Shown here one piece after another: positions 8,856-54,120 of a stretch of DNA of 64,000 nt. The stretch's first letter is position 1. Every line of letters begins with the position of its first letter. Below the pieces are notes generated by a model. That model did no database searches. It saw only the letters and a list, made by a program, of their open reading frames with translations, and was not told where the DNA came from. Position numbers and translations under genes: made by a program. The stretch comes from an uncultured cyanobacterium (GTDB taxonomy: Bacteria > Cyanobacteriota > Cyanobacteriia > Cyanobacteriales > CAWUOF01), in assembly GCA_963744145.1 (NCBI GenBank), contig CAVUSO010000001.1:6208001-6272000 (forward strand), given 5' to 3'.

Positions 8856-9899
8856 AAATTATATTATTCCAAATCATACCATCTTGAGCAACTTGGGATG
8901 AATAGATCAACTCTTTTTGGTGTAAAATCTAGAAAGACGAAGGTAGTTTTAATCACCTCGAATTTTTACAAGGTAATATCTAGTGACAAATATCCAAGTC
9001 CTATGCTATAAATATGATTGATTAAACTGCTACTTAATTGCCAGCAGCATTCTCAAGTTAGCAAAAATATAAAAAAATCATATCCTGAGAGAACTTCTAA
9101 AATGTCCAGATCGTCTTCATATCAAGGTTGGGAAATTACTGAAGAACAAAGAGAAGCTTATCGACAATGTTCAAAAGAATCTAGTAAAGCTAAAGCACAA
9201 GCTCTTCGAGGTGAAGGGAGCAAACCGATCCATCCCATTAATAATCCTCAATTAAAACCTGAGCAATTAATGCCACAATTACCCGAAAATGGATGGCGAT
9301 CGCTTTCTTTGTTTAGTGGTGGTGGTGGTTTGGATCTTGGCTTTGATCGAGCAGGTTTCCATCACATCGCTTCCTATGATATTCTCCGCTTCTAAAAATC
9401 TATGTAAACCTACGCAAAGGCAGAAATGAATAGACAAGACTCAGCGGTTTAAGTTTCTGAAGCATTATTTCTTAGTGCTTGCGCTTCCCCAGTATTGAGG
9501 TTGGCCAAGAAATCCCAGTTAGAAACGGTATAATAATCGTGTCTACGTTTGATTACACCGGAATGCTTGATTTGGTTATTTAGTTGATGCCACTGACTCC
9601 AAACGTGCTTAGTTAAGTTCACCTCAACAAAGGCGGTTAAGGAGTCAGGTAATTTTTCCGATAGTTTCATGGCACGTCTGCCAATCACAAAGGCTGCGGC
9701 TTCATCACTGGCGAGGGCATACATCCGCAGATATTTGACCAGGCCAATCACGCTCGAATAAGCAGGATTGACCGTGATTAGTTCAATGCCTCGGTTGGCC
9801 AAGATTGAACTTAGTTGTTTAAAAAACTCAGAATATGCCCAGCCAGAAAGCATCCTGGCATATTTCCGACCAAGTTCTCTCAGCTGTTCTTTCTTAGTA

Positions 9900-11479
9900 A
9901 GTAGTCGGACATAAATAAAGTTAACTATGTTAACTTTATTTAAGAGTAAATTTGACCCACAAATTTACCAGAGAAAAGCATATAAAAGTATTCCCTCCGT
10001 CCAACTGAATAGGTTTCACTAGAGAGTAAGAAAACTGCATTTCCAGATTTTCTATTAACTATAAATATGGTCAGTTTTGCCTCAGCCTCTCATTAAACAA
10101 TTAATGGAATTTTTCCGGTTGACTAGAACTAGAATAAACCCGATTAGGATTTTTGTTCATCCTGGCTAGGCTGACCACCAAATCTAAATCTTTTTACTTC
10201 TAAGCCCTTACTAGTTTGACGAGCTTCGATTGCTGCTCTTACCGCGATGGTTAATTCATATTCATTCTCAAACATTTGACCAGCTAATTCATCTTCTTTG
10301 ATTCTTTCCCACTCCGTTTCAATCAGATTTAATTCGGGAGAGTAACTGGATAATAGGAATATATATAATCCTTGTTTTTCCCATTGATCATAGTTGCTCT
10401 TCGTCAATTTACTTACGTGAACGGAATATTGGTCTTGGACAATTACAGTTATTTTGCCCGTTTCTTTCAATCTAGTTTCCGCTTGCGCGGCTTGCCAATC
10501 CATTAATTTGATATAATTCTTACTGTCAAAACTCTTAAAACTTAATCCATATTCAAAGCTTTCTCCCACGGCCAAAAATCCACATATATTTAATCTTTTC
10601 CCTTTCTTTTTAGGCTGTTTGATCTGTTTCTGTTGGCCGATTTTCCCCCAGGTATATACAGGTTCAGCCCACAGGCTAAATCCTGATTCATCCAAATATT
10701 TTAAACATATTTCACCCGCGGCTGCCGCGAATTCCAACATCTCTAAATCATTTCTTTTAGTTGCTCTTTTTTCCTGGTCTTGCTTTCCTTTTAGAGATGT
10801 TCTCGTTCTTTTCCACCGATAGTTTTTTTTGAGGATTCGACGCAACTGTCTTTGGCTCAGTTTTACTTGCCTTTCCTGGGCTAGATATTTCACTAACTGA
10901 CGACTATTATAAGCTCGTTCCTCTGTCTCTAGTTTTTTTTCAATTTCTGCCAAATCTGCCTGACTCCATTTTCTTTTCCTGCCCGGACGAGGCGCATCCC
11001 ATAATCCTGCTAATCCCTGTTTTTCCCAACGATGTATTGTGGCTCTCACTGTCTTAATTGACCAGTTCAGATACTTGCCGATCTGTTCCACTTTCCATCC
11101 CATTGATGATAATCTCAAGGTCGCAGCCCGATCTCTTGTTCTTAGTGGAACTCCCTCGGCTCTATTTAATTCCCATAAGGTTTGATTTTCCGCAGATGTT
11201 AAAAATATTCTCAAAGGAGGAGATGACATTTTCTTCAAACTTTTAAGTTAGCTCTATAATTATTTCACAATCAGGGTGTTTTTTTTGAAGCTAAAATCGA
11301 CCTCACTTATCCCCTTAATTACCAAAATAAGTCTAATTTTTTGCTCCCATTGTCCAGCCACTTCTTTGGCCAATCTTCCCCAGATTGGACTAATTTTTCG
11401 ATGACTTTGTCCAGCTTATTGCTTGACCCATACGTTTTACAAAAGTTAATACAGTACCTATTACTTTTGTCCGACTACT
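9900..11479 (-). mobile_element. IS630-family element, copy 1 (1580 bp)
   Basis: Terminal inverted repeats AGTAGTCGGACA; TA duplication at 9898-99 and 11480-81; appears identical to 51458..53037. Confidence 0.92.
10144..11229 (-). CDS. IS630-family DDE transposase
   Basis: N-terminal HTH (WEKQGLAGLWDAPRPGRKRK); catalytic YLDESGF, IVQDQYSVH and YSPELNLIE. Confidence 0.92.
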   Translation of the reverse strand: MSSPPLRIFLTSAENQTLWELNRAEGVPLRTRDRAATLRLSSMGWKVEQIGKYLNWSIKTVRATIHRWEKQGLAGLWDAPRPGRKRKWSQADLAEIEKKLETEERAYNSRQLVKYLAQERQVKLSQRQLRRILKKNYRWKRTRTSLKGKQDQEKRATKRNDLEMLEFAAAAGEICLKYLDESGFSLWAEPVYTWGKIGQQKQIKQPKKKGKRLNICGFLAVGESFEYGLSFKSFDSKNYIKLMDWQAAQAETRLKETGKITVIVQDQYSVHVSKLTKSNYDQWEKQGLYIFLLSSYSPELNLIETEWERIKEDELAGQMFENEYELTIAVRAAIEARQTSKGLEVKRFRFGGQPSQDEQKS

Positions 11480-12561
11480 TAGAAAAGTCTAACTGTTCGC
11501 AAACAATGGGGCATTGATATCTGATTGCTAATCTGGCTAGTTGCAGACAAGCCTCAACAATTTGAGCTTGTTGTTGGCCGTTGGGTAATCCAGTTTGTAA
11601 CGAGATCTGACCATGTGCTTTGAGATTACCTTCAGGGTCAAGGTATGCCCATCCAATTGAGCCAGGATTTAGGTCAATGCCGATACATCCATAGTTTACA
11701 GAACGCGATATTTGCTTAACTGGTTTTGGGGTAAATTGGACGGCAGTACACCATTTTCCCTCTTTGTAATAAAAGTGCCAAGTCTTAGCACCTGTTGCTG
11801 GTAATCGGTCAATATTTCTGGGGAAATCACCAATGTTGGACTCAACATATTTACCAAATTGGGACTCTAAACAAGCAGGGACTCTAAACTTTAAATTATT
11901 GCCGTCCCATTGGCAAGATTGATTTCCAAAAGATTCACTCTTAGAGCCAACTACAAAGACTTGATTCCTTGGTACGAAAACCCGAATGGGGATAGTTTTT
12001 AGTTTGGCAATCCTTTGTTGATATCGGAACAGTTTTCGTTTCTTATTGTGGATTTGAAACCGTAAATGTTGCCAATTAGTTTGGCGATATTTTAATGAAC
12101 TGGAGAGTGGAAAACCACAGCCAGTCTTACTATTGACCCAATTCTTTTGACGATAAAACTTCCGGGCATCTTTCAGTTTCTTTTCAGCTTTCTTTAACCA
12201 TTGCTCACAAGACTTCGCCTTACCTTCTAAGGTTTTGATATGTAAATCCCTACATTCCTTAGCACTATCAACTGCCCCCTTAGCTGATGCAACTACACCA
12301 GCAGCATGACGTTTGTTTATTTGATAAATATGCTGTAGATGTCTATTCCAATCGGATTTATTGAACGTTTGTCCTGATAACAAATGATTAACAGTTTCAC
12401 ATACTGCCTGACGGAATATTGGCGCATAAGCATTCAAAAACATCTCGCTTCTGAGTTTTGCCAATGGCGTTTAACTCTTCTAGTGGTGTTGGTAGTCCTT
12501 TGCAGTACGTTAGCCTTGTCATTTAGACTTTTAAATCTTTTTTTATATCTGGATCTTAGCA

Positions 12562-18230: not shown

Positions 18231-20522
18231 ATGATTTTTCAATTTTTCCAGAAATATCGCCCATGGCTGTTAATGATCTTACTAACGGGATTAGCAATTT
18301 TATCAATTAAATATATCCCTTTAATTTATGTTCCACAAGCTCCCCAAATATCAACTAATCAAAATCCTGTTTATTTTACGGTTAAAGCCGATCAGATTCG
18401 GATAGATTGGTCTGAAAAAATCGCGAAAATTAGTGAACACCAATTATTTGTCGATGGGAGTAATGGGAATGACGATAACGACGGGGAAACTCTCTTAACA
18501 GCTTTTAAAACTATTCAAAAGTGTGCCGATGCAGCACCTAGTGGTTCTGTTTGTTTGATTCGTGGTGGGGTATATCGCGAAACTGTTATTCCTGCTCATG
18601 ATCAGGTAATTTACCGCAATTATAATCAGGAAAAAGTAACTGTAACTGGTGCTGATTTAATTACTGGATGGCTACCTTTTGATCTTCAGGATCATAAAAA
18701 AATCTATCGCGCTCACCAAGATTGGAATTTAGGGTTAGGTCTGGAGCAAATTATTGTCGATGGGAAAATGATGGTAGCCGCCCGGTGGCCCAATATTTCG
18801 ATCGCTCAGGTTACTACTTTAAAAAATACTGATAAAGCTAGATCTAATGATCGTAATGGTGGAGGACACAGTAGCGATCGGATTGGTTGGTATAATGATA
18901 GTGACCTCAAGGAAGCTGGAGTAAACTGGCAAGGAGGTAAAATTACTTTTGCTCCAGGTTGGTTGTGGAATAATTATACTTGTGATGTGACTAATTCTAC
19001 TCGCGATCGCGTAGATTTTCAATGTCCATTTCCTAGCTTAGAGCAGGAATGGAGTTTTCCTGGTAATAAAGACTATTTTTTTTTATGGGGTAAGTACCAA
19101 GGGTTAGATTATCCGGGGGAATTTTTTCAAGACCCAAAGAACAATAACTTATTTCTTTGGACAGCTGATAGTAGCAATCCGAATACCAAAACAGTTGAGT
19201 CTAAAAAACGCAATTATTGGTTTGTTTTAGATGATCGATCGCAGATTACGATCGAGGGCATAAATTTTATCGCTGGTACTTTCAAATTTAATAATAAAAG
19301 TAACAATAATCTTCTTAATAAGATCAAAGCTAAGTATGTTGGTCACTACATGGATATAGCTCTGATTAACTATACCGATCGCCAGCCAAGAACTATTAAC
19401 ATTCAAGGACATGGTAACCAAATTATTAATAGTGAATTAAGTGACAGCTCAACTAGTATGATATTTTTAGATCATGGCGCTATTAATACTAAAATTGCTA
19501 ATAACATCATCTACAACGTGAATTATAACGGTACAGTTAATGATGGAGCGATCGCTGGAATTGCAACTAATGTGGGAGGAAATGAAACTAATATGGGAGG
19601 AAATGAAACTAATGAGTTTGGGCAAAATACAGTTTTTAATAGTGGCTACAATGGAGTCATGATGGATTCTGGTTTAGATATAAAAAATAATGATGTTTAC
19701 AACACTCATTTTCAAGGTACTGATAGCGGTGCGATTAGTATGAGTCCCGATACAGATGGTAAAGGACTAGAAGTTGCTTATAACTACGTCCATGATGCAA
19801 TGGGTGAAATAGATAAAGATTTAAATCGTTTTGGAGGTCATGGAATTTATGCAGATATTCACACTAAAAACTTTCTTTGGCACCACAATGTAATTTGGCA
19901 TAATTCCGCCGAAAATTTACTAATATTGACCAAGCAAGATGGTCAAACAGGTCTAGTTTATCATAATACATCTGATGGAGAAATAGGTGCTGATGGGAAA
20001 GATATGGACGGGTTAGACTTTAAAAATAACTTAGCGAAAAGCTTTTTGAAAAATTCCCTTGGCTCAGTACCCCAAAGCAATAATTATTGGTACGGTAATA
20101 ATGATCCAAAATTCGTAGACTCAGATCACCATGACTATCGCTTATTACCAAATTCCCCTGCTAAAAATATCGGACAACCAATTCAGATCAACTTCTTCGG
20201 TAAAAATATTAATGTTACTGGTGAATTTGGACAAAATCAACCAGATGTAGGTGCTTTTGAAGGAGAAACCCAAAATTGGGTAGCTGGTGCTATTATATTG
20301 CCGGAAAATGTCGAGAGTTTAAAGATTAATTGTGTTAGCATGGGTAACGATCGGGCTAATTGTGATATTACTAATTTACCAATGGGGCGCAAAATACCTG
20401 CCCAGTTTCAAATGAATGGTTTTGGAGAGATGATTCATTGTATTAATATCACTAACTATACTACTAATATTAGCACTGGTAAATGCTCTAATATCCCAGT
20501 GCTGAAAAAGAAGTTAAACTAA
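18231..20522 (+). CDS. Secreted or membrane-anchored right-handed beta-helix (pectin-lyase-like, DUF1565-type) protein
   Basis: N-terminal TM/signal; FVDGSNGNDDNDG..AFKTIQ..IRGGVYRETV; Asn-rich PbH1-like repeats; DYRLLPNSPA..PDVGAFE. Confidence 0.7.
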   Translation: MIFQFFQKYRPWLLMILLTGLAILSIKYIPLIYVPQAPQISTNQNPVYFTVKADQIRIDWSEKIAKISEHQLFVDGSNGNDDNDGETLLTAFKTIQKCADAAPSGSVCLIRGGVYRETVIPAHDQVIYRNYNQEKVTVTGADLITGWLPFDLQDHKKIYRAHQDWNLGLGLEQIIVDGKMMVAARWPNISIAQVTTLKNTDKARSNDRNGGGHSSDRIGWYNDSDLKEAGVNWQGGKITFAPGWLWNNYTCDVTNSTRDRVDFQCPFPSLEQEWSFPGNKDYFFLWGKYQGLDYPGEFFQDPKNNNLFLWTADSSNPNTKTVESKKRNYWFVLDDRSQITIEGINFIAGTFKFNNKSNNNLLNKIKAKYVGHYMDIALINYTDRQPRTINIQGHGNQIINSELSDSSTSMIFLDHGAINTKIANNIIYNVNYNGTVNDGAIAGIATNVGGNETNMGGNETNEFGQNTVFNSGYNGVMMDSGLDIKNNDVYNTHFQGTDSGAISMSPDTDGKGLEVAYNYVHDAMGEIDKDLNRFGGHGIYADIHTKNFLWHHNVIWHNSAENLLILTKQDGQTGLVYHNTSDGEIGADGKDMDGLDFKNNLAKSFLKNSLGSVPQSNNYWYGNNDPKFVDSDHHDYRLLPNSPAKNIGQPIQINFFGKNINVTGEFGQNQPDVGAFEGETQNWVAGAIILPENVESLKINCVSMGNDRANCDITNLPMGRKIPAQFQMNGFGEMIHCINITNYTTNISTGKCSNIPVLKKKLN

Positions 20523-20609: not shown

Positions 20610-21012
20610 TGTAGGGGCGAAGCATTCCGGCAGATCAGTCATAGGTAAACACCAGTAACTTTATCCCGGAATGCTTCGCCCTTCTTTGAGGGTGGTGGAA
20701 TGTAGGGGCGAAGCATTCCGGCAGATCAGTCATAGGTAAACACCAGTAACTTTATCCCGGAATGCTTCGCCCTTCTTGCCGACAGATCAGTTATATGTCA
20801 ATACATTCAGTTAAGAATATTTTGGAGGATACGGGCAAATCAGGGCGAAGCATTCGGATATAATGTTAACCGTTGTGAACGATCGCTTATCGCCCGAATG
20901 CTTCGCCCCTACAATCGATCGCTTGGGGATACGGGCAAATCAGGGCGAAGCATTCGGATATAATATTAACCGTTGTAAACGATCGCTTGTCGCCCGAATG
21001 CTTCGCCCCTAC
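20610..21012. repeat. Composite GTAG-type REP array (left copy): 2 type-A hairpins (period 91) + 2 type-B hairpins (period 100)
   Basis: A = GTAGGGGCGAAGCATTCCGG..CCGGAATGCTTCGCCC; B = GGGCGAAGCATTCGG..CCGAATGCTTCGCCCCTAC; A and B carry GTAG on opposite strands. Confidence 0.9.
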
Positions 21013-21140
21013 AATTAACCGAACCATATTGAGTGCGAAGCGATCGCATTAAATTAATCTCTATCTATAGTATTTTTTTTGAGTGCGATCACCATAAATA
21101 TATCTCAAACTCAATGATATTTGCTTAGGAACTTAGGCTG

Positions 21141-23735
21141 TTAAAAAAAATCAACTTGAAAATTTAATTGACTATCTATTTTTTCAAGCTCTCGAATTTG
21201 TTCAGCAATCCAAGCTTTTTCAGTTTCGCATTGTTTTTGGGTTTGTTGCTCCTGCCGTTCTTGCTGCTCTAATAAATTTTCCCACAGCGAAATAGCTTTT
21301 TCCATTAGATCGCTAGTCGGCTCAAATCGCTCATCAAATATTGCAATAATTCTTTCTTGTATCTGCTCAAAAATAGCCTGAGAAGATTCATTAAATTTCT
21401 GAAACCCTAACTCACAAACTTTTTGTTTTATTTTAGCTTTAACTGTATCGCCATCGAAAGCACTCCAACTCAAACCGCCAACAGTACCTGCTGCTAAACT
21501 AGCTAAAATAAGTGGAATAATACCAATTCCTGTAAACGCAAATAATCCAGCAAGTACGGCTCCACCAATTTTTAAACCACCCCCAAATCCGCCACTCCAT
21601 ACCTCACTAATTGATGAAGCAATTCCGCTTCCTTCGATACCAATTTCTCCCAGACCGCCCACTGTTGCTAAACTACTGAATTGAGCAAGAAGACTAGTGC
21701 TGAGTTGCTGATCATATTTTTGAAACTCTTGTCGAATGGTATAAATATTTTCTCCAATTTCGCTTTCAAAAACTTTCATATTTGGTTGCAATATTGCATT
21801 AACTCTTAGCTTTGCCCAGTCATCAATTTCCTTGGTAATATCTTCTACAAACTGATTGGCATAATCTTTAATCAACTCGTTTTGACTCCAAATATGCGAA
21901 TGTTCAGAAGTCCAGTTAGAAGCTTTTTTGATCATCCGATCGCCCAATCCTTCTACCCATTCATGCCAAGATTTAACAGTTTCTTCTAAACATTGTTGCA
22001 TTAATTTATGTGCTAACAGTTTAATTTTTACGTCGCGACCACTTACTTCGGCTATTAGTTCAAATATTTTCTGCTTATCTTCTTGTGAAACAGTCAATTT
22101 TCCCTCTAATATTTTCCTATATTGACTCAATTTATTGTAACCAGTATCAATTATTTGCTTAATCACTGTGGCTGACTGCTGAAGTGCGATCGCCCCACGT
22201 TCTTCTGTCAAAAAATGTTCAAGGGAGTCGATAAAATCATGAAAAGATTTCAGATAATTATTTTCTGTTCCATCTAAAATAGCATCTAGTGCGGATTGAG
22301 CGGAAATAAAATGAATCCGGTTTTCACCAGCAATCAAATTTTGATTATTGACAATTGTTTCTACCCTCTTTCTTACCTGTTTGCGACTTTCTTCCTGACG
22401 CAGCAAATCGGCAAAATTAACTAAAACAAAAATATTCTTTGCAGCTTCATTATCTCTACCAGGATTCAACTCTTTTTTCAAATACAAAAGCAGTTCCCGT
22501 TCTTTTTCTGTCAAAGCATTTTGAGCATGAGTCAAAAAAATTACTGCATCGCTAGTTTTGAGAACCTGTTCAGTAACTAACGTGCGTTCTGCGTGTTCGT
22601 TTAAACCGGGAGAATCAATAATTTCTACACCATTGCGGCACAATTCGAGATTAGGATGCTCGAAAATTATTTCTTGAAGTTCTGAATTGATAATTTCGTC
22701 CCCAACAGAACCTAAAGCTGCTTCCTCAGAAATTGAAGCTTTATCTTTATATTGCTGCGGTGAAATCTCCTCCTCACGTCCATTTTTGTATTTACAGATA
22801 ACCCGTTGCTTTTTTCCATACTTTAAAATTGTTACTGTACCGCTACAAGGAATATCCCGTACTGGTTGAATTTCCTCACCCAGCAAAGCATTGAGTAAAG
22901 TTGATTTACCTTTGCTAAATTCACCAACAACAGCAATACGAAATCCTTGAGATTTCAATTTGCAAAACTCTTTTGTTACTTCTTCGGTTAAAGTAGAAGC
23001 GATCACATTGCGATCGCTAGCATCTTGCAAAAATAAACATAGATTATAGCAAACTCCATACAGTTGTTTTCGATGATCCTGAAATTTTTTTAACTCTTGA
23101 TATAACGAGACTGCAAGCTTTTGGCTTTTTTGATGTTTCGGTTTTGCTGGTAAATGTTCGATAATGTGACTAGCCGCACGGATAAACAAAGAATCGAGAG
23201 ATTGAAATTGTGATGGATCAAGTAACGAATGAGTTTCCCCTAAAGCTTCTGTATCTCTTATTGCTTGATTGCTAAAACTGGCTTCTAAAACAGTTAAGTA
23301 TCGGGAGTCAAGTTCCAATCTGTTACTGATAAGTGTCAAATATCTTTTTTTATAATTATTAGTTGCCGTGTCTGACGCTGACATTTGATAACCAAAGCTA
23401 ATTAGCAATAGTTTTTCTTTCTCAGAAAAACACTCTGTGATTACTAAAAAATCCTGGATTTTTTGGTAAAATTGCTGATCTCGCACATTCTTAATTATCG
23501 GCCCTAGCAATTGTCGCAAATTGTTATTAGTGGGTATAAGTTTCTTCAAGGTTGTTACAAGTTGCTGCATTTCCTCAGCACTAGCAGTGCCCTTGACATA
23601 GATGACTCCCAGCAACACCGTGATCAGCGATACTAGGAAGAGGATCGATGGACTGACATCTTCTTTGCGAAGTTTTTGCCCAGTAAGAAGCGAAACAAAC
23701 TGAACCGTTTGCAAACTAATTAGCGAAGTATCCAT
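21141..23735 (-). CDS. Bacterial dynamin-like GTPase with an N-terminal TerB-like domain
   Basis: G1 VVGEFSKGKSTLLNALLG; G3 IIDSPGLN; G4-like NFAD; IHFISA; C-terminal hydrophobic paddle GLKIGGAVLAGLFAFTGIGIIPLILASL. N-terminal ~190 aa has the helical TerB pattern. Confidence 0.85.
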   Translation of the reverse strand: MDTSLISLQTVQFVSLLTGQKLRKEDVSPSILFLVSLITVLLGVIYVKGTASAEEMQQLVTTLKKLIPTNNNLRQLLGPIIKNVRDQQFYQKIQDFLVITECFSEKEKLLLISFGYQMSASDTATNNYKKRYLTLISNRLELDSRYLTVLEASFSNQAIRDTEALGETHSLLDPSQFQSLDSLFIRAASHIIEHLPAKPKHQKSQKLAVSLYQELKKFQDHRKQLYGVCYNLCLFLQDASDRNVIASTLTEEVTKEFCKLKSQGFRIAVVGEFSKGKSTLLNALLGEEIQPVRDIPCSGTVTILKYGKKQRVICKYKNGREEEISPQQYKDKASISEEAALGSVGDEIINSELQEIIFEHPNLELCRNGVEIIDSPGLNEHAERTLVTEQVLKTSDAVIFLTHAQNALTEKERELLLYLKKELNPGRDNEAAKNIFVLVNFADLLRQEESRKQVRKRVETIVNNQNLIAGENRIHFISAQSALDAILDGTENNYLKSFHDFIDSLEHFLTEERGAIALQQSATVIKQIIDTGYNKLSQYRKILEGKLTVSQEDKQKIFELIAEVSGRDVKIKLLAHKLMQQCLEETVKSWHEWVEGLGDRMIKKASNWTSEHSHIWSQNELIKDYANQFVEDITKEIDDWAKLRVNAILQPNMKVFESEIGENIYTIRQEFQKYDQQLSTSLLAQFSSLATVGGLGEIGIEGSGIASSISEVWSGGFGGGLKIGGAVLAGLFAFTGIGIIPLILASLAAGTVGGLSWSAFDGDTVKAKIKQKVCELGFQKFNESSQAIFEQIQERIIAIFDERFEPTSDLMEKAISLWENLLEQQERQEQQTQKQCETEKAWIAEQIRELEKIDSQLNFQVDFF

Positions 23736-23822
23736 TTGCAGCGTTATAGATATTGTTTATCTAGAATATAATCATTATAATAGATGAGTTATTCTGTAGA
23801 ATGATGCCAGGATAAAAATTTT

Positions 23823-25106
23823 ATGATGAATTTTGTATTTCCCGCAGCGGTACAGGCTGGAATAGCGGCTGGTAAGTATGTACAAGTGTTTACATCCGCT
23901 GGAGTGCCAATCGGTATGGCCAGAGATGCAGCAACGGGACATTTTGCGGCTCATGCCATTGGTGCGGTTGTCAACAATAGTCCTCTCACACCCTTAGTGT
24001 CTCCCATAAATTTGATCATGGGTGGCTTGCAGATGTACCAAACACACATGGGTTTTCAAGCAGTCCAAGCTAGTTTAGGAGTATTGCAAGCAACAACAGC
24101 TGTTATTGGTGTAGGCACTTTTGCAGGGGTAGCCTTGTCAGCAGTGAATTTATACCAGACATTGCAACTTAAAAAAGCGGTTGAGAGGCTAGAAATTAAA
24201 GTAGAAAATGGTTTCATCAATTTAGAGCAACTTTTGAAAGGCCAAGGAACGGAAATTAAGCAATTAATTTACCAAGTTCTTGAAGAGATGAAATTTGAGC
24301 AGCATCGTCTTGTGCTAGTTCAGGCTTACGGGTTATTTACACAAGCAATTCAACGAATGCGATCAGCCCTGAAACTGCAAGATATTAATCGCAGAAATGC
24401 TGAAATTGATGCTGCACGAGGGATGTTATTTGAAGCTTTAGCTGATTACAGAAATCCGCATTTATTAGAAGAAACTTGTACACCAGGACAGTTGCGTCGC
24501 TTCGAGTGTAGTTGGGTGATCGAACAAAGTATTATCAGCACCTATCAGATCCAAAATGAGTTTGTTGCCGCAAGCGATCGCATTATTCAGCTTCAAAACA
24601 CAATCCGTCAAGATGGGCTAAAAGTAATGGATGGCTGCGATTCTGACGATGAGCTAGATTTTCTCTACCCAGAAATCACAAGGATTCATAATCACGATTT
24701 AGCTTTATTAGACACTTGGCTTCATCAAATTGAATGGACGAAAGCTTTGCCGGAAAAAGAGTTAAAGCAGCTACAAAGTGCGGATTTCAGTGCCAATACT
24801 TCTACCACTGGGGATCAAAAATCAGCAACAACCGCTTTAGCGATCCCAGATGAACAATTACTTTATGAAAATTTGCGATCGAAGTCTCATTTTTACGCCC
24901 TTCGCACTCAACTAGAATTGATGCTAGACCCTCAGAAGCGTTCAGAATATGAAACGTATATTCAGGAGCAAGGGAAAATAGCGGGTCATAAAAGTTTAGT
25001 ACCGTCGAACTTGGAGAAAGCGTCTGATTTCGCTGTTGCTAATCTTTATTACTACTTTAAGGTTCGGGATAACTCGGAAGAACCAGAATTAGTGACTTCT
25101 TCCTAA
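23823..25106 (+). CDS. Uncharacterised protein with Gly/Ala-rich hydrophobic N-terminal helices and coiled coil
   Basis: Intact 427-aa ORF divergent from the dynamin gene; LGVLQATTAVIGVGTFAGVALSAVNLYQ followed by a heptad-rich helical region. Confidence 0.7.
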   Translation: MMNFVFPAAVQAGIAAGKYVQVFTSAGVPIGMARDAATGHFAAHAIGAVVNNSPLTPLVSPINLIMGGLQMYQTHMGFQAVQASLGVLQATTAVIGVGTFAGVALSAVNLYQTLQLKKAVERLEIKVENGFINLEQLLKGQGTEIKQLIYQVLEEMKFEQHRLVLVQAYGLFTQAIQRMRSALKLQDINRRNAEIDAARGMLFEALADYRNPHLLEETCTPGQLRRFECSWVIEQSIISTYQIQNEFVAASDRIIQLQNTIRQDGLKVMDGCDSDDELDFLYPEITRIHNHDLALLDTWLHQIEWTKALPEKELKQLQSADFSANTSTTGDQKSATTALAIPDEQLLYENLRSKSHFYALRTQLELMLDPQKRSEYETYIQEQGKIAGHKSLVPSNLEKASDFAVANLYYYFKVRDNSEEPELVTSS

Positions 25107-25135
25107 TGAAGTATCCTGAATAGGATTCAATTAAC

Positions 25136-25770
25136 TGTAGGGGCGAAGCATTCCGGCAGATCAGTCATAGGTAAACACCAGTAACTTTATCCCGGAATGC
25201 TTCGCCCTTCTTTCTGGTAGATCAGTTATAAACACCAGTAACTTTATCCCGGAATGCTTCGCCCTTCTTTCTGGTAGATCAGTTATAAACACCAGTAACT
25301 TTATCCCGGAATGCTTCGCCCTTCTTTCCGGCAGATCAGTCATAGGTCAATTCAATTAAGAATATTTTGGGGGATACGGGCAAATCAGGGCGAAGCATTC
25401 GGATATCATGTTAACCGTTGTGAACGATCGCTTATCGCCCGAATGCTTCGCCCCTACATTCCCACCTTCCCATATTCCCATCAAATCGTTAATCGATCGC
25501 TTGGGGATACGGGCAAATCAGGGCGAAGCATTCGGATATCATATTAACCGTTGTGAACGATCGCTTATCGCCCGAATGCTTCGCCCCTACATTCCCACCT
25601 TCCCATATTCCCATCAGATCATCAATCGATCGCTTGGGGATACGGGCAAATCAGGGCGAAGCATTCGGATATAGTATTAACGGTTGTGAACAGTAAATTA
25701 TCGCCCGAATGCTTCGCCCCTACATTCCCACATTCCCATATTCCTATCAGATCATTAATCGATCGCTTGG
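25136..25770. repeat. Composite GTAG-type REP array (right copy): A hairpin with 57-bp tandem expansions + 3 B units (period 133)
   Basis: Same A and B units, linker (TTAAGAATATTTTGG) and orientation as 20610-21012. Confidence 0.9.
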
Positions 25771-32028: not shown

Positions 32029-32102
32029 GGGATTGTAGTTCAATTGGTTAGAGCACCGCCCTGTCACGGCGGAAGTTGCGGGTTCGAGCCCCGTCAGTCC
32101 CG
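32029..32102 (+). tRNA. tRNA-Asp (GTC)
   Basis: Cloverleaf GGGATTG..CAGTCCC; anticodon loop CTGTCAC; GGTTCGAG T-loop; TTGACA at 31982. Confidence 0.97.
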
Positions 32103-32107
32103 TTAAC

Positions 32108-32220
32108 GTAGGGGCGTATTGCAATACGCCCCATGGCAATATGCCCCATGGCAATATGCCCCATGGCAATACGCCCCATGGCAATACGCCCCATGGCAAT
32201 ACGCCCCATGGCAATATGCC
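32108..32220 (+). repeat. GTAG-REP hairpin followed by about 7 tandem 15-bp repeats (GCAATAYGCCCCATG)
   Basis: Units start at 32121, 32136, 32151, 32166, 32181, 32196 and 32211. Confidence 0.9.
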
Positions 32221-32328
32221 TTATGATAGTATGCCCTATTGCCTCCCTAGGTGATTGGAGCGGATCGGAAAATACCATCTAAAATTTAAAATGCAGATGT
32301 GATTGCTGTATGGGAGAGAAAAGCTGCT

Positions 32329-51295: not shown

Positions 51296-51457
51296 CAATC
51301 CTATCAATGTATCTTCATCATCAATTGGTATTATCATCTTTAAAAGTATTGAATAGGCGAAGTTCTTGACCATCGTAGGAACCAGGGAAAAACATCACCA
51401 ATGGTATGGCGCTCGAGAACTGGGTGTAAATTATTGAGGATAGTATGCTATCCGCTA

Positions 51458-53037
51458 AGTAGTCGGACAAAAGTAATAGGTACTGTATTAACTTTTGTAA
51501 AACGTATGGGTCAAGCAATAAGCTGGACAAAGTCATCGAAAAATTAGTCCAATCTGGGGAAGATTGGCCAAAGAAGTGGCTGGACAATGGGAGCAAAAAA
51601 TTAGACTTATTTTGGTAATTAAGGGGATAAGTGAGGTCGATTTTAGCTTCAAAAAAAACACCCTGATTGTGAAATAATTATAGAGCTAACTTAAAAGTTT
51701 GAAGAAAATGTCATCTCCTCCTTTGAGAATATTTTTAACATCTGCGGAAAATCAAACCTTATGGGAATTAAATAGAGCCGAGGGAGTTCCACTAAGAACA
51801 AGAGATCGGGCTGCGACCTTGAGATTATCATCAATGGGATGGAAAGTGGAACAGATCGGCAAGTATCTGAACTGGTCAATTAAGACAGTGAGAGCCACAA
51901 TACATCGTTGGGAAAAACAGGGATTAGCAGGATTATGGGATGCGCCTCGTCCGGGCAGGAAAAGAAAATGGAGTCAGGCAGATTTGGCAGAAATTGAAAA
52001 AAAACTAGAGACAGAGGAACGAGCTTATAATAGTCGTCAGTTAGTGAAATATCTAGCCCAGGAAAGGCAAGTAAAACTGAGCCAAAGACAGTTGCGTCGA
52101 ATCCTCAAAAAAAACTATCGGTGGAAAAGAACGAGAACATCTCTAAAAGGAAAGCAAGACCAGGAAAAAAGAGCAACTAAAAGAAATGATTTAGAGATGT
52201 TGGAATTCGCGGCAGCCGCGGGTGAAATATGTTTAAAATATTTGGATGAATCAGGATTTAGCCTGTGGGCTGAACCTGTATATACCTGGGGGAAAATCGG
52301 CCAACAGAAACAGATCAAACAGCCTAAAAAGAAAGGGAAAAGATTAAATATATGTGGATTTTTGGCCGTGGGAGAAAGCTTTGAATATGGATTAAGTTTT
52401 AAGAGTTTTGACAGTAAGAATTATATCAAATTAATGGATTGGCAAGCCGCGCAAGCGGAAACTAGATTGAAAGAAACGGGCAAAATAACTGTAATTGTCC
52501 AAGACCAATATTCCGTTCACGTAAGTAAATTGACGAAGAGCAACTATGATCAATGGGAAAAACAAGGATTATATATATTCCTATTATCCAGTTACTCTCC
52601 CGAATTAAATCTGATTGAAACGGAGTGGGAAAGAATCAAAGAAGATGAATTAGCTGGTCAAATGTTTGAGAATGAATATGAATTAACCATCGCGGTAAGA
52701 GCAGCAATCGAAGCTCGTCAAACTAGTAAGGGCTTAGAAGTAAAAAGATTTAGATTTGGTGGTCAGCCTAGCCAGGATGAACAAAAATCCTAATCGGGTT
52801 TATTCTAGTTCTAGTCAACCGGAAAAATTCCATTAATTGTTTAATGAGAGGCTGAGGCAAAACTGACCATATTTATAGTTAATAGAAAATCTGGAAATGC
52901 AGTTTTCTTACTCTCTAGTGAAACCTATTCAGTTGGACGGAGGGAATACTTTTATATGCTTTTCTCTGGTAAATTTGTGGGTCAAATTTACTCTTAAATA
53001 AAGTTAACATAGTTAACTTTATTTATGTCCGACTACT
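51458..53037 (+). mobile_element. IS630-family element, copy 2 (1580 bp)
   Basis: Same TIRs AGTAGTCGGACA; TA at 51456-57 and 53038-39. Confidence 0.92.
51708..52793 (+). CDS. IS630-family DDE transposase
   Basis: Translation identical to 10144..11238 in the ORF track. Confidence 0.92.
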   Translation: MSSPPLRIFLTSAENQTLWELNRAEGVPLRTRDRAATLRLSSMGWKVEQIGKYLNWSIKTVRATIHRWEKQGLAGLWDAPRPGRKRKWSQADLAEIEKKLETEERAYNSRQLVKYLAQERQVKLSQRQLRRILKKNYRWKRTRTSLKGKQDQEKRATKRNDLEMLEFAAAAGEICLKYLDESGFSLWAEPVYTWGKIGQQKQIKQPKKKGKRLNICGFLAVGESFEYGLSFKSFDSKNYIKLMDWQAAQAETRLKETGKITVIVQDQYSVHVSKLTKSNYDQWEKQGLYIFLLSSYSPELNLIETEWERIKEDELAGQMFENEYELTIAVRAAIEARQTSKGLEVKRFRFGGQPSQDEQKS

Positions 53038-54120
53038 TAAACACGCCTTCATATCTGGACAACCAGTACATAAAGTGTAGAGATGGCCAGTCTCAGTAGG
53101 GGCGTATTGCATACGCCCGCGTATAGCAATACGCCCCTGCTACGTTACTTGGGTCATGGCACCTATGAGTGCTTTCCAGCTTGTAGCTCTGCCGTTCAGT
53201 TTTAAACATTCCTATTTAGCTCAAGAAAGTGAACTGAACTTGACAAGCCTAAGTAACATTGACGAGGAAACAATTACCTGAGTAATCAGAGTTTTAAACG
53301 CCATATCGAAGCGGGTCTGAAAAGAACAATATCGTAGCTTCTATCTGTAATGCCAGCAGATATGCCAGAGAGAATCACCACTTTTGAAGCGCAAAGGTGT
53401 TCTTTTTTTTTGATTAAGGTCGTTTAGTCCATATTTGTCCACATATTCGGCGATTAGAGGTGATCCGATCGAAGCAAAGGCCAACTCGCCCCACGCCGGT
53501 CAAAAACACCAGTTGTTCCTGACCACTTAATTTTTTCTGGATCTGGTCAATAACTTGGGCAGGACGCACTAGAGGAAAAATAGTTTTACTCAGAACGGCA
53601 CTACCTTTAGTTGCTTCCAAATCAAATGCTTTCTGCAAAACTCCCCTTCCTTGCAAAATTTTCAGAACGACATAGCAGAGGTTAATCTCCTCTACTTTCA
53701 GATGATGGGAAGAATTTGTCAATTGCGGCATTAAACGAGCAACCTGCTGCTGCACTAATGGCTCATGTTCGGGGTCATAATCAAATATATAAAAGCCAAT
53801 TTCATTACCAATCCCGCGATTGTTAAGTAAGCGAGAGTCTTGTAAAACCAGGAGTAAATTGTCAAGACGTTGCTGAATAGTTGGCGTAGATATATCTTTT
53901 ATGCTGTTGGGTTGATTAAATACCAAACCGTAACATCATGATAAAACATGAGTTCGGGTTAAGCCGCAGACAGTAAGTTGTGGTCAAAAATTGTTGTGAG
54001 AGAGCCTGTTCGGGCTATATGCCAGTTTATTGTGCCAGTTTTTCTCTGTAAGACTTGTCTTATACGTTGATTATGTAGTAAGACTATATTAGCGACTCAT
54101 GTAAGACTAGGTAAAACAAT

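Follow-up and report, generated by a model that had tools for sequence, protein, structure and literature searches.

A divergent pair of a dynamin-like GTPase and a helical partner protein, apparently a conserved two-component membrane module of cyanobacteria

The stretch of DNA considered here (the window, 64,000 nucleotides in length, C1:6208001-6272000 of a 7.7-Mb genome) comes from an uncultured organism which is cyanobacterial by its homologues and by the labels of the gene trees, the closest comparison genome being of the same family only. It holds two genes set head to head with a spacing of 87 bp, one encoding an 864-amino-acid (aa) dynamin-like protein and the other a 427-aa protein, hereafter the partner, and both are enclosed by arrays of repetitive extragenic palindromes (REPs). 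Here, I report that this pair is apparently a real, conserved and undescribed two-component membrane module of cyanobacteria. The two genes and the region between them are as follows.

21141-23735, minus strand: dynamin-like protein, 864 aa (open reading frame, Pfam, motif and hydropathy evidence)
23823-25106, plus strand: partner protein, 427 aa (open reading frame, structure model)
23736-23822, no strand: divergent intergenic region, 87 bp (alignable to Microcoleus-type pairs, where it measures 77-86 bp)

No sigma-70 consensus promoter was found in a scan of the 87-bp intergenic region. A preliminary description, made from the DNA letters alone, had proposed a divergent unit of a dynamin and a 427-aa protein, and both the coordinates of the reading frames and a Dynamin_N match (PF00350, E=1e-27, 97 bits against a cut-off of 27) bear this out. 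The 864-aa protein is composed of a TerB-like region (aa 37-145), a G domain with G1 and G3 motifs (Walker A GEFSKGKS at aa 271, DSPG at aa 374) and a trunk (aa ~488-864) carrying a Gly-rich hydrophobic paddle, with a hydropathy peak of 2.36 at aa 727. The TerB-like N-terminus of the preliminary description is seen more clearly in the family than in the host copy: the latter scores 16.6 bits with PF05099, below the cut-off of 24.4 (E=0.01), yet 29 of the 48 aligned family members reach E<=0.001, the best being 3e-14.

Among solved structures, the best match of the host dynamin is the Nostoc punctiforme BDLP (PDB 2J68, E=3e-24), with which it has in common the extended P-loop GxxxxGKSTLLNALL and the Gly-rich hydrophobic trunk paddle. 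In contrast to this protein, classed as a 'Tandem B' cBDLP by Jilly et al. in the accessible part of PMC5827413, the partner of the host dynamin is not a second dynamin; moreover, in the host family the two genes diverge, a TerB-like domain stands at the N-terminus of the dynamin, and some forms have no GTPase and are reduced to the trunk. The same part of that paper recognises six clades of cyanobacterial dynamins, none of them defined by such a partner, and considers the cellular roles of these proteins largely unknown. The pairs described in the available portions of PMC5827413 and 10.1101/2022.05.11.491447 consist of two dynamins, or of a dynamin with KGK, HSR1 or DnaK neighbours. In the literature searched, with subscription papers largely outside its scope, neither a TerB-dynamin nor a trunk-only protein with this partner has been described.

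The partner has 840 homologues in 8000 scored candidates, those bearing a name being cyanobacterial. Among 301 genomes of the phylum its family occurs in 44 and the dynamin (E<=1e-40) in 30; all 30 dynamin-bearing genomes also hold the 427-aa family, and in 27 of them the two are adjacent. Fourteen genomes have the 427-aa family with no dynamin match, three of which are absent from the set of loci. This set comprises 68 loci, namely 62 with a near-full-length partner, 5 with partner fragments only and 1 TerB-only control. At each of the 62 loci with a near-full-length partner, a gene for the dynamin or for its trunk lies next to it, and 55 out of 56 pairs with a clean call are divergent, the last one being tandem; hence the co-occurrence and divergent synteny that had been proposed as a check are both there, and pairing of the 427-aa protein with a dynamin or a trunk is obligate.

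A peculiar feature of the family is that the dynamin side may be reduced. At 13 loci, in 11 genomes of 4 families, the partner stands beside a protein of ~340 aa (275 aa in one) that is homologous only to dynamin aa ~492-858 (hidden Markov model E 1e-14 to 1e-36). When these trunk-only proteins were checked for TerB and for a G domain, neither was present, and the hydrophobic paddle is missing as well (maximum hydropathy 0.94-1.38 in the 7 tested, versus 2.36 in the dynamin); the 9 trunk-only rows placed in the tree form one clade. Likewise, five full dynamins lack TerB and still have the partner next to them. TerB, considered as a candidate pairing determinant, is therefore ruled out, for the partner is kept by both kinds of protein, and the constant half of the system is the trunk. 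The natural variants devoid of GTPase, paddle and TerB suggest that the trunk may have a binding function of its own.

The partner was therefore predicted to bind the trunk, and the complex was modelled from partner residues 1-420 and trunk residues 488-864 with paired alignments of 48 rows. The interface score ipSAE (interaction prediction score from aligned errors) is 0.71, a passing value, with 0.00 for the best of three controls; the mark is reached by 116 of 157 solved pairs and by 2 of 215 mismatched pairs, a benchmark that applies only roughly since these models rest on their own alignments. The runs share at least 96% of contacts, and the predicted local distance difference test (pLDDT) of the partner is at least 72. 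Two features of the locus are defined by this model.

22017-22076, minus strand: predicted site of docking on the trunk, a helix of aa 554-573 with the motif EVSGRD (complex model, conservation)
24849-25076, plus strand: predicted docking domain at the C-terminus of the partner, helical, aa 343-418 (motifs KSH and ANL; complex model)

In the predicted interface, partner residues 353-359 and 389-414 lie against trunk residues 554-573 and 815-823. No other stretch of 20 aa in the trunk is as conserved as the helix 554-573, which the trunk-only paralogues retain; trunk interface residues have a conservation of 0.59 against 0.39 (0 of 20000 random draws). The C-terminal domain of the partner is thus predicted to dock on the most conserved helix of the dynamin trunk. 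The two-component membrane-acting system put forward in the preliminary description is supported by the full co-occurrence and by this model, which is also what it had asked for.

By sequence, the partner matches no family in Pfam, PADLOC or NCBIfam, and a search of the PDB returned only a coiled-coil match to UspA1 (E=0.04). A first structure model, built from 39 close homologues, was weak (pLDDT 63) and has been superseded by one from 79 sequences (pLDDT 87, predicted template modelling score 0.89), in which a beta domain (2-50) is followed by hydrophobic helices (62-121), a linker (122-155), a helical bundle and the C-terminal docking domain. The longest structural matches, over partner aa ~55-355, are Cry2Aa, Cry7Ca1, Cry1Da, Cry11Aa, Cry5B and IPD113 together with JukB (Z 9-10.6, root-mean-square deviation (rmsd) 3.2-4.7, 161-203 residues aligned), all below the noise level for helical proteins; for Cry2Aa (chain residues 54-283) Z is 10.5, rmsd 4.1 and 194 residues are aligned, and for JukB Z is 10.1, rmsd 3.7 and 161 residues are aligned. 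In a second structural look, 7 of the top 8 matches were Cry proteins or JukB. Because the Z values lie below helical noise, a Cry-domain-I/JukB-like core is put at about even odds or slightly better. Matches in the ESM Atlas to CTXL_M, DUF3944 and MukF clusters (0.75-0.81, those to DUF3944 staying under 0.8) are leads only.

The partner may resemble domain I of Cry toxins (Cry2Aa, Cry3Aa, Cry7Ca1; IPD113 in ferns) in its helical bundle, with ~185-195 residues aligned over the domain-I portion of these chains, and differs in being without the receptor-binding domains II and III; identity is at most 10%, with Z below helical noise, and nothing points to secretion of the partner or to an animal target. 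As to Juk (10.1101/2022.09.17.508391; PMC13434031; PDB 9JHT), the accessible parts of these sources describe a two-component logic and a pore-forming helical effector, to which the pair would bear a likeness; unlike Juk, however, the host pair has no JukA/YaaW sensor (no YaaW-type family match was found by Pfam in the dynamin or in the 427-aa protein), a dynamin trunk standing in that place. Identity to JukB is 8%, and two parts of the 427-aa protein, the beta domain and the docking domain at its C-terminus, are additional to what JukB has.

Remote homologues of the partner cover mostly aa ~75-305, end before the docking domain and carry TPR, WD40 or MORN repeats in fusion with it (as in P0223, P0234, P0247 and P0253), so that their modular build looks effector-like. 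Fusions of this type are possibly a separate family of repeat-sensor effectors. Microcoleus partners often (as at L003:7998-10511, L024:7998-10397 and L025:8001-9737) have variable C-terminal add-ons, namely an acyl-carrier-like domain, a glycine-zipper domain with a PDC-M09A match and, in one protein, a GUN4-like domain. A 345-aa gene of another dynamin block was tried as a homologue of the partner and rejected as not homologous.

With respect to the history of the pair, both host proteins fall within clades of support 100 otherwise made of Microcoleus-type loci (plus G214 in the partner tree), within Microcoleaceae in both trees, and the host belongs to another family. Between positions 21168 and 25092, a span that takes in the intergenic region, the DNA of host and Microcoleus is 76-79% identical, and the similarity stops at the gene ends. 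At fourfold sites the pair is 0.51-0.58 identical to Microcoleus, versus 0.22-0.45 for six neighbouring housekeeping genes; with other families the identity of the pair is 0.36-0.44. The aroF/rpsO site, where the pair resides at many Microcoleus loci and also in G115, is without it in the host. The host has therefore probably gained the pair horizontally, as a two-gene unit, from the Microcoleus lineage, a reading of the sequences in which the direction is not proven; the gain as a unit that the preliminary description had envisaged agrees with the identity limited to exactly the pair, with the fourfold-site excess and with both trees.

The repeat arrays around the pair call for a separate treatment.

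20610-21013, no strand: left GTAG-type REP array (A, A, linker, B, B), an inverted doublet with internal amplification; GTAG of the A hairpins at 20611 and 20702 (plus strand), of the B hairpins at 20912 and 21012 (minus strand)
25136-25769, no strand: right GTAG-type REP array (A, a', a', linker, B, B, B), a direct copy of the left array, made of one full A, two 57-nt partial A repeats, the linker and three 133-nt B units

The preliminary description claimed that the same composite array stands on both sides in the same orientation and nowhere else in the window, and so it does. Its further claim of identical loop and linker sequence holds for the A loop, which is exact, but not for the linker (85% identity over 67 nt) or the B loop (35/36), and unit numbers differ. 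The first 78 nt of the two arrays are identical and the 37-nt A loop has exactly 3 copies in the 7.7-Mb genome, all within these arrays, which are therefore locus-specific relatives and not chance neighbours. Genome-wide the hairpin family counts 328 matches, 231 arrays and 120 inverted doublets, so that GTAG hairpins, inverted doublets and high copy number, as in GTAG REP doublets, are all present; it was found in 31 of 151 genomes of the order. For 30 of the 231 host arrays the best match lies within 25 kb (1.6 expected). GTAG-tagged hairpins, an inverted doublet and tandem reiteration are shared with the REPs, REP doublets (REPINs, REP doublets forming hairpins, or BIMEs, bacterial interspersed mosaic elements) and REPtrons treated in the accessible sections of PMC3733652; in contrast to REPtrons, no gene for a REP-associated tyrosine transposase (RAYT) lies between or beside the arrays of the pair, and the genes enclosed are not transposases.

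It was conceivable that the pair forms a mobile cassette bounded by REPs and moved in or out by a RAYT or by recombination between the arrays, a proposal that concerns the DNA only and is judged quite improbable. Several observations speak for it: each array is the best match of the other, and what they share extends precisely from GTAG to CTAC; their inner flanks are family-consensus and the outer ones rare, as a single crossover would give; the pair looks acquired, with the host aroF/rpsO site lacking it; and all nine reciprocal near array pairs of the host, these two arrays included, are direct. Such a GTAG-to-CTAC stretch with such flanks could be the product of one crossover at a REP doublet, and just as well of a later conversion between neighbouring arrays; in several other array pairs the shared stretch extends 180-930 bp into unique DNA or gene ends. 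The near-identity of the arrays, set against a pair ~22% diverged from its nearest sampled relatives, also fits later homogenisation, and a divergent pair presents two 3' ends, the preferred position of REPs according to the accessible sections of PMC3733652.

Nor does the bracket travel with the genes. The comparison covers 58 other loci whose flanks reach 300 bp or more: a long direct bracket is absent from 57, and two of the 58 have inverted GTAG repeats and one short tandem repeats. The array arms of the pair occur at none of the 28 Microcoleus-type loci. The single bracketed case (L087:7357-10460, genome G247) is a trunk-only pair tightly flanked by two direct ~200-bp GTAG-tagged elements, which would favour a cassette; this is, however, a different GTAG element, with dozens of copies in G247, and its two flanks are not mutual best matches. 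In a survey of the host for RAYTs (17 Y1_Tnp matches, 10 stretches inspected), none of the inspected stretches held a RAYT flanked by the REP class of the arrays. A REPtron was seen at C1:6661501-6662857 (L138), with a RAYT-like gene matching NF047646 at 79.7 bits against a cut-off of 80; this gene, at C1:6661951, is flanked by inverted GTAGGGGCGGGT REPs, of a GTAG class other than that of the arrays around the pair, a further point against the cassette. In a metagenome search with lhgO the best match was 77%, and neither the pair nor the beta-helix gene was nearby in any of the 37 loci; in one contig set, at a depth of ~4-6, no joint across the pair (empty site or circle) was seen.

A REP-blind screen of the genome, based on two-copy 24-mers and not listing the locus of the pair itself, found 257 local direct duplications 0.8-30 kb apart versus 2 inverted ones, and REP arrays in 8 of the 257 against 7.7 by chance, so that REP enrichment among local duplications is rejected. 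The host genome has very active tandem duplication. The REP-directed mobile cassette of the preliminary description thus finds no support, with 1 of 58 loci bracketed, no matching RAYT in the stretches inspected and no REP enrichment of duplications. The bracket is real, local to the host and incidental, not part of the two-gene system; it would have arisen locally, either through an insertion at a REP doublet that was helped by homology or, at a later time, when one of two nearby arrays was converted by the other or duplicated. Direct-repeat brackets are common in such genomes and, alone, no mark of mobile cassettes.

What the pair does is approached from its constant parts. The favoured reading, to which as a whole a probability of roughly 0.5 is given, regards it as a conserved cyanobacterial two-component membrane module in which a latent membrane-permeabilising effector would be held by the dynamin trunk, while the place and time of its action would be set by GTPase, paddle and TerB as optional modules. 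The 427-aa protein would be this membrane-inserting effector, with hydrophobic N-terminal helices on a Cry-domain-I/JukB-like bundle; its C-terminal domain would dock on the trunk; the trunk would most likely keep it in check as a chaperone or antidote; and GTPase, paddle and TerB, where present, may make its release or delivery depend on GTP and on a target membrane when the cell is stressed or infected. Computation shows that the pairing is obligate, that trunk-only forms exist, that the predicted interface falls on conserved residues and that the pair was likely exchanged horizontally with the Microcoleus lineage; that a pore forms, that the trunk restrains the effector and what triggers its release, I infer.

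A number of points weigh against it. The Z of ~10 for the partner fold is lower than the ~13 noise level of helical bundles, the top match of a wide structural search is TTYH3 (Z 12.2, 120 residues) and TPR/Rap proteins tie; Foldseek with the partner model returned nothing at E<=0.001 from the PDB and viral structures, and sequence searches in family libraries and the PDB gave no link of the partner to Cry or JukB. The partner side of the interface is not significantly conserved (0.65 against 0.58, p=0.07), and the complex score is a model confidence from its own alignments, not a measurement. Furthermore, the 68 loci include 28 from close kin of the Microcoleus type, which are not independent, and both gene trees are quick, unrooted runs. 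Finally, most neighbours have housekeeping or signalling roles, and in Microcoleus the pair occupies stable sites beside aroF/rpsO, unlike typical defence cargo.

These stable neighbourhoods, with no defence island among the neighbours of 28 diverse loci, favour the main rival, in which the partner is a benign membrane anchor or adaptor that recruits the dynamin through the trunk so that membranes can be repaired or remodelled (at the thylakoid or septum, or under envelope stress), with neither pore nor restraint; it is possible, if on the unlikely side. The Nostoc BDLP as the closest solved relative suits it, one hydrophobic segment of the partner could serve as an anchor, and the same predicted interface is required. 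At 13 loci, however, the trunk lacks both GTPase and paddle and there is therefore no motor to recruit; the family is patchy (44/301 genomes), horizontally exchanged and often fragmentary; and the repeat-fused homologues and Cry/JukB-like fold suit an effector better.

A sub-case of the favoured reading, held to be rather doubtful, is a dedicated anti-phage system, in which the dynamin, in the manner of Eleos/Leo or DynA, would act with a JukB-like pore former to attack a phage-induced membrane structure or to abort infection. The dynamin has partial PADLOC matches to LeoA and LeoBC (E 3e-22 and 6e-15), JukB is among the fold matches of the partner, and C-terminal fusions to the partner match PDC-M09A. 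According to the available part of 10.1101/2022.05.11.491447, Eleos protects against jumbo phages and its GTPase motifs are required, and JukB permeabilises an early phage vesicle in the accessible part of the review PMC13434031. The former source, in that same part, describes Eleos (LeoABC) as an operon of two dynamin-like genes, 60% of cases lying beside defence systems; the host pair is likewise a two-gene unit with a dynamin-like GTPase, but it consists of one dynamin and a divergent, non-GTPase partner with no Leo match, has no defence-island context and scores 25.5 bits with the NCBIfam LeoA model NF041922, against a cut-off of 325. JukA, too, is lacking. Of the 110 nearest neighbours at the 28 diverse loci, 10 match PADLOC at E<=1e-8, mostly through generic domains (TnpB-like, ABC ATPase), a figure with no background rate.

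Other locally bracketed blocks of the host hold IetAS-like and PDC-M21-like genes, which would suit an anti-phage role. A 19-kb block at C1:2294561-2313865 (L136), flanked on both sides by a ~260-bp direct repeat holding a REP hairpin, is a probable defence island, with a CrfC-like dynamin, an AAA ATPase (PDC-M07A/HEC-01A matches), a patatin, a Tiamat TmtA-like gene and PDC-M21A/B. The block at C1:2802345-2815502 (L137) has an IetAS-like pair of AAA ATPase and S8 peptidase and a 1447-aa gene, and sits in a ~870-bp direct duplication including a REP and a gene 3' end.

The favoured reading may be taken one step further, tentatively and at less than even odds, to an undescribed class of membrane attack: the dynamin trunk would be the antidote or delivery scaffold of a Cry-domain-I/JukB-like pore former, GTP-driven opening at the target membrane would unleash the effector, trunk-only versions would be pure antitoxins, and the whole would spread horizontally among cyanobacteria as a divergent unit.

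Elsewhere in the window, two 1585-bp copies, 100% identical and inverted, lie at 9898-11482 and 51455-53039, each ending in ~51-bp imperfect terminal inverted repeats, and are probably an insertion sequence. The 763-aa protein at 18231-20522, called a beta-helix in the preliminary description, is without a Pfam match and has two paralogues in the genome (C1:645167-646828, 59%; C1:5961449-5963353, 37%). At 32088-32252, upstream of a glutamate-tRNA-ligase-like gene, 15-bp tandem repeats begin from a GTAGGGGCGTATTGCAAT REP-like arm.

To sum up, the family provides a dynamin with an obligate non-dynamin partner, a predicted interface at the level of residues, and natural deletion variants, without TerB or without GTPase and paddle. 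Should the partner prove to form pores, there would be a direct tie between dynamins and controlled membrane permeabilisation, joining the themes of Eleos/DynA and JukB immunity.

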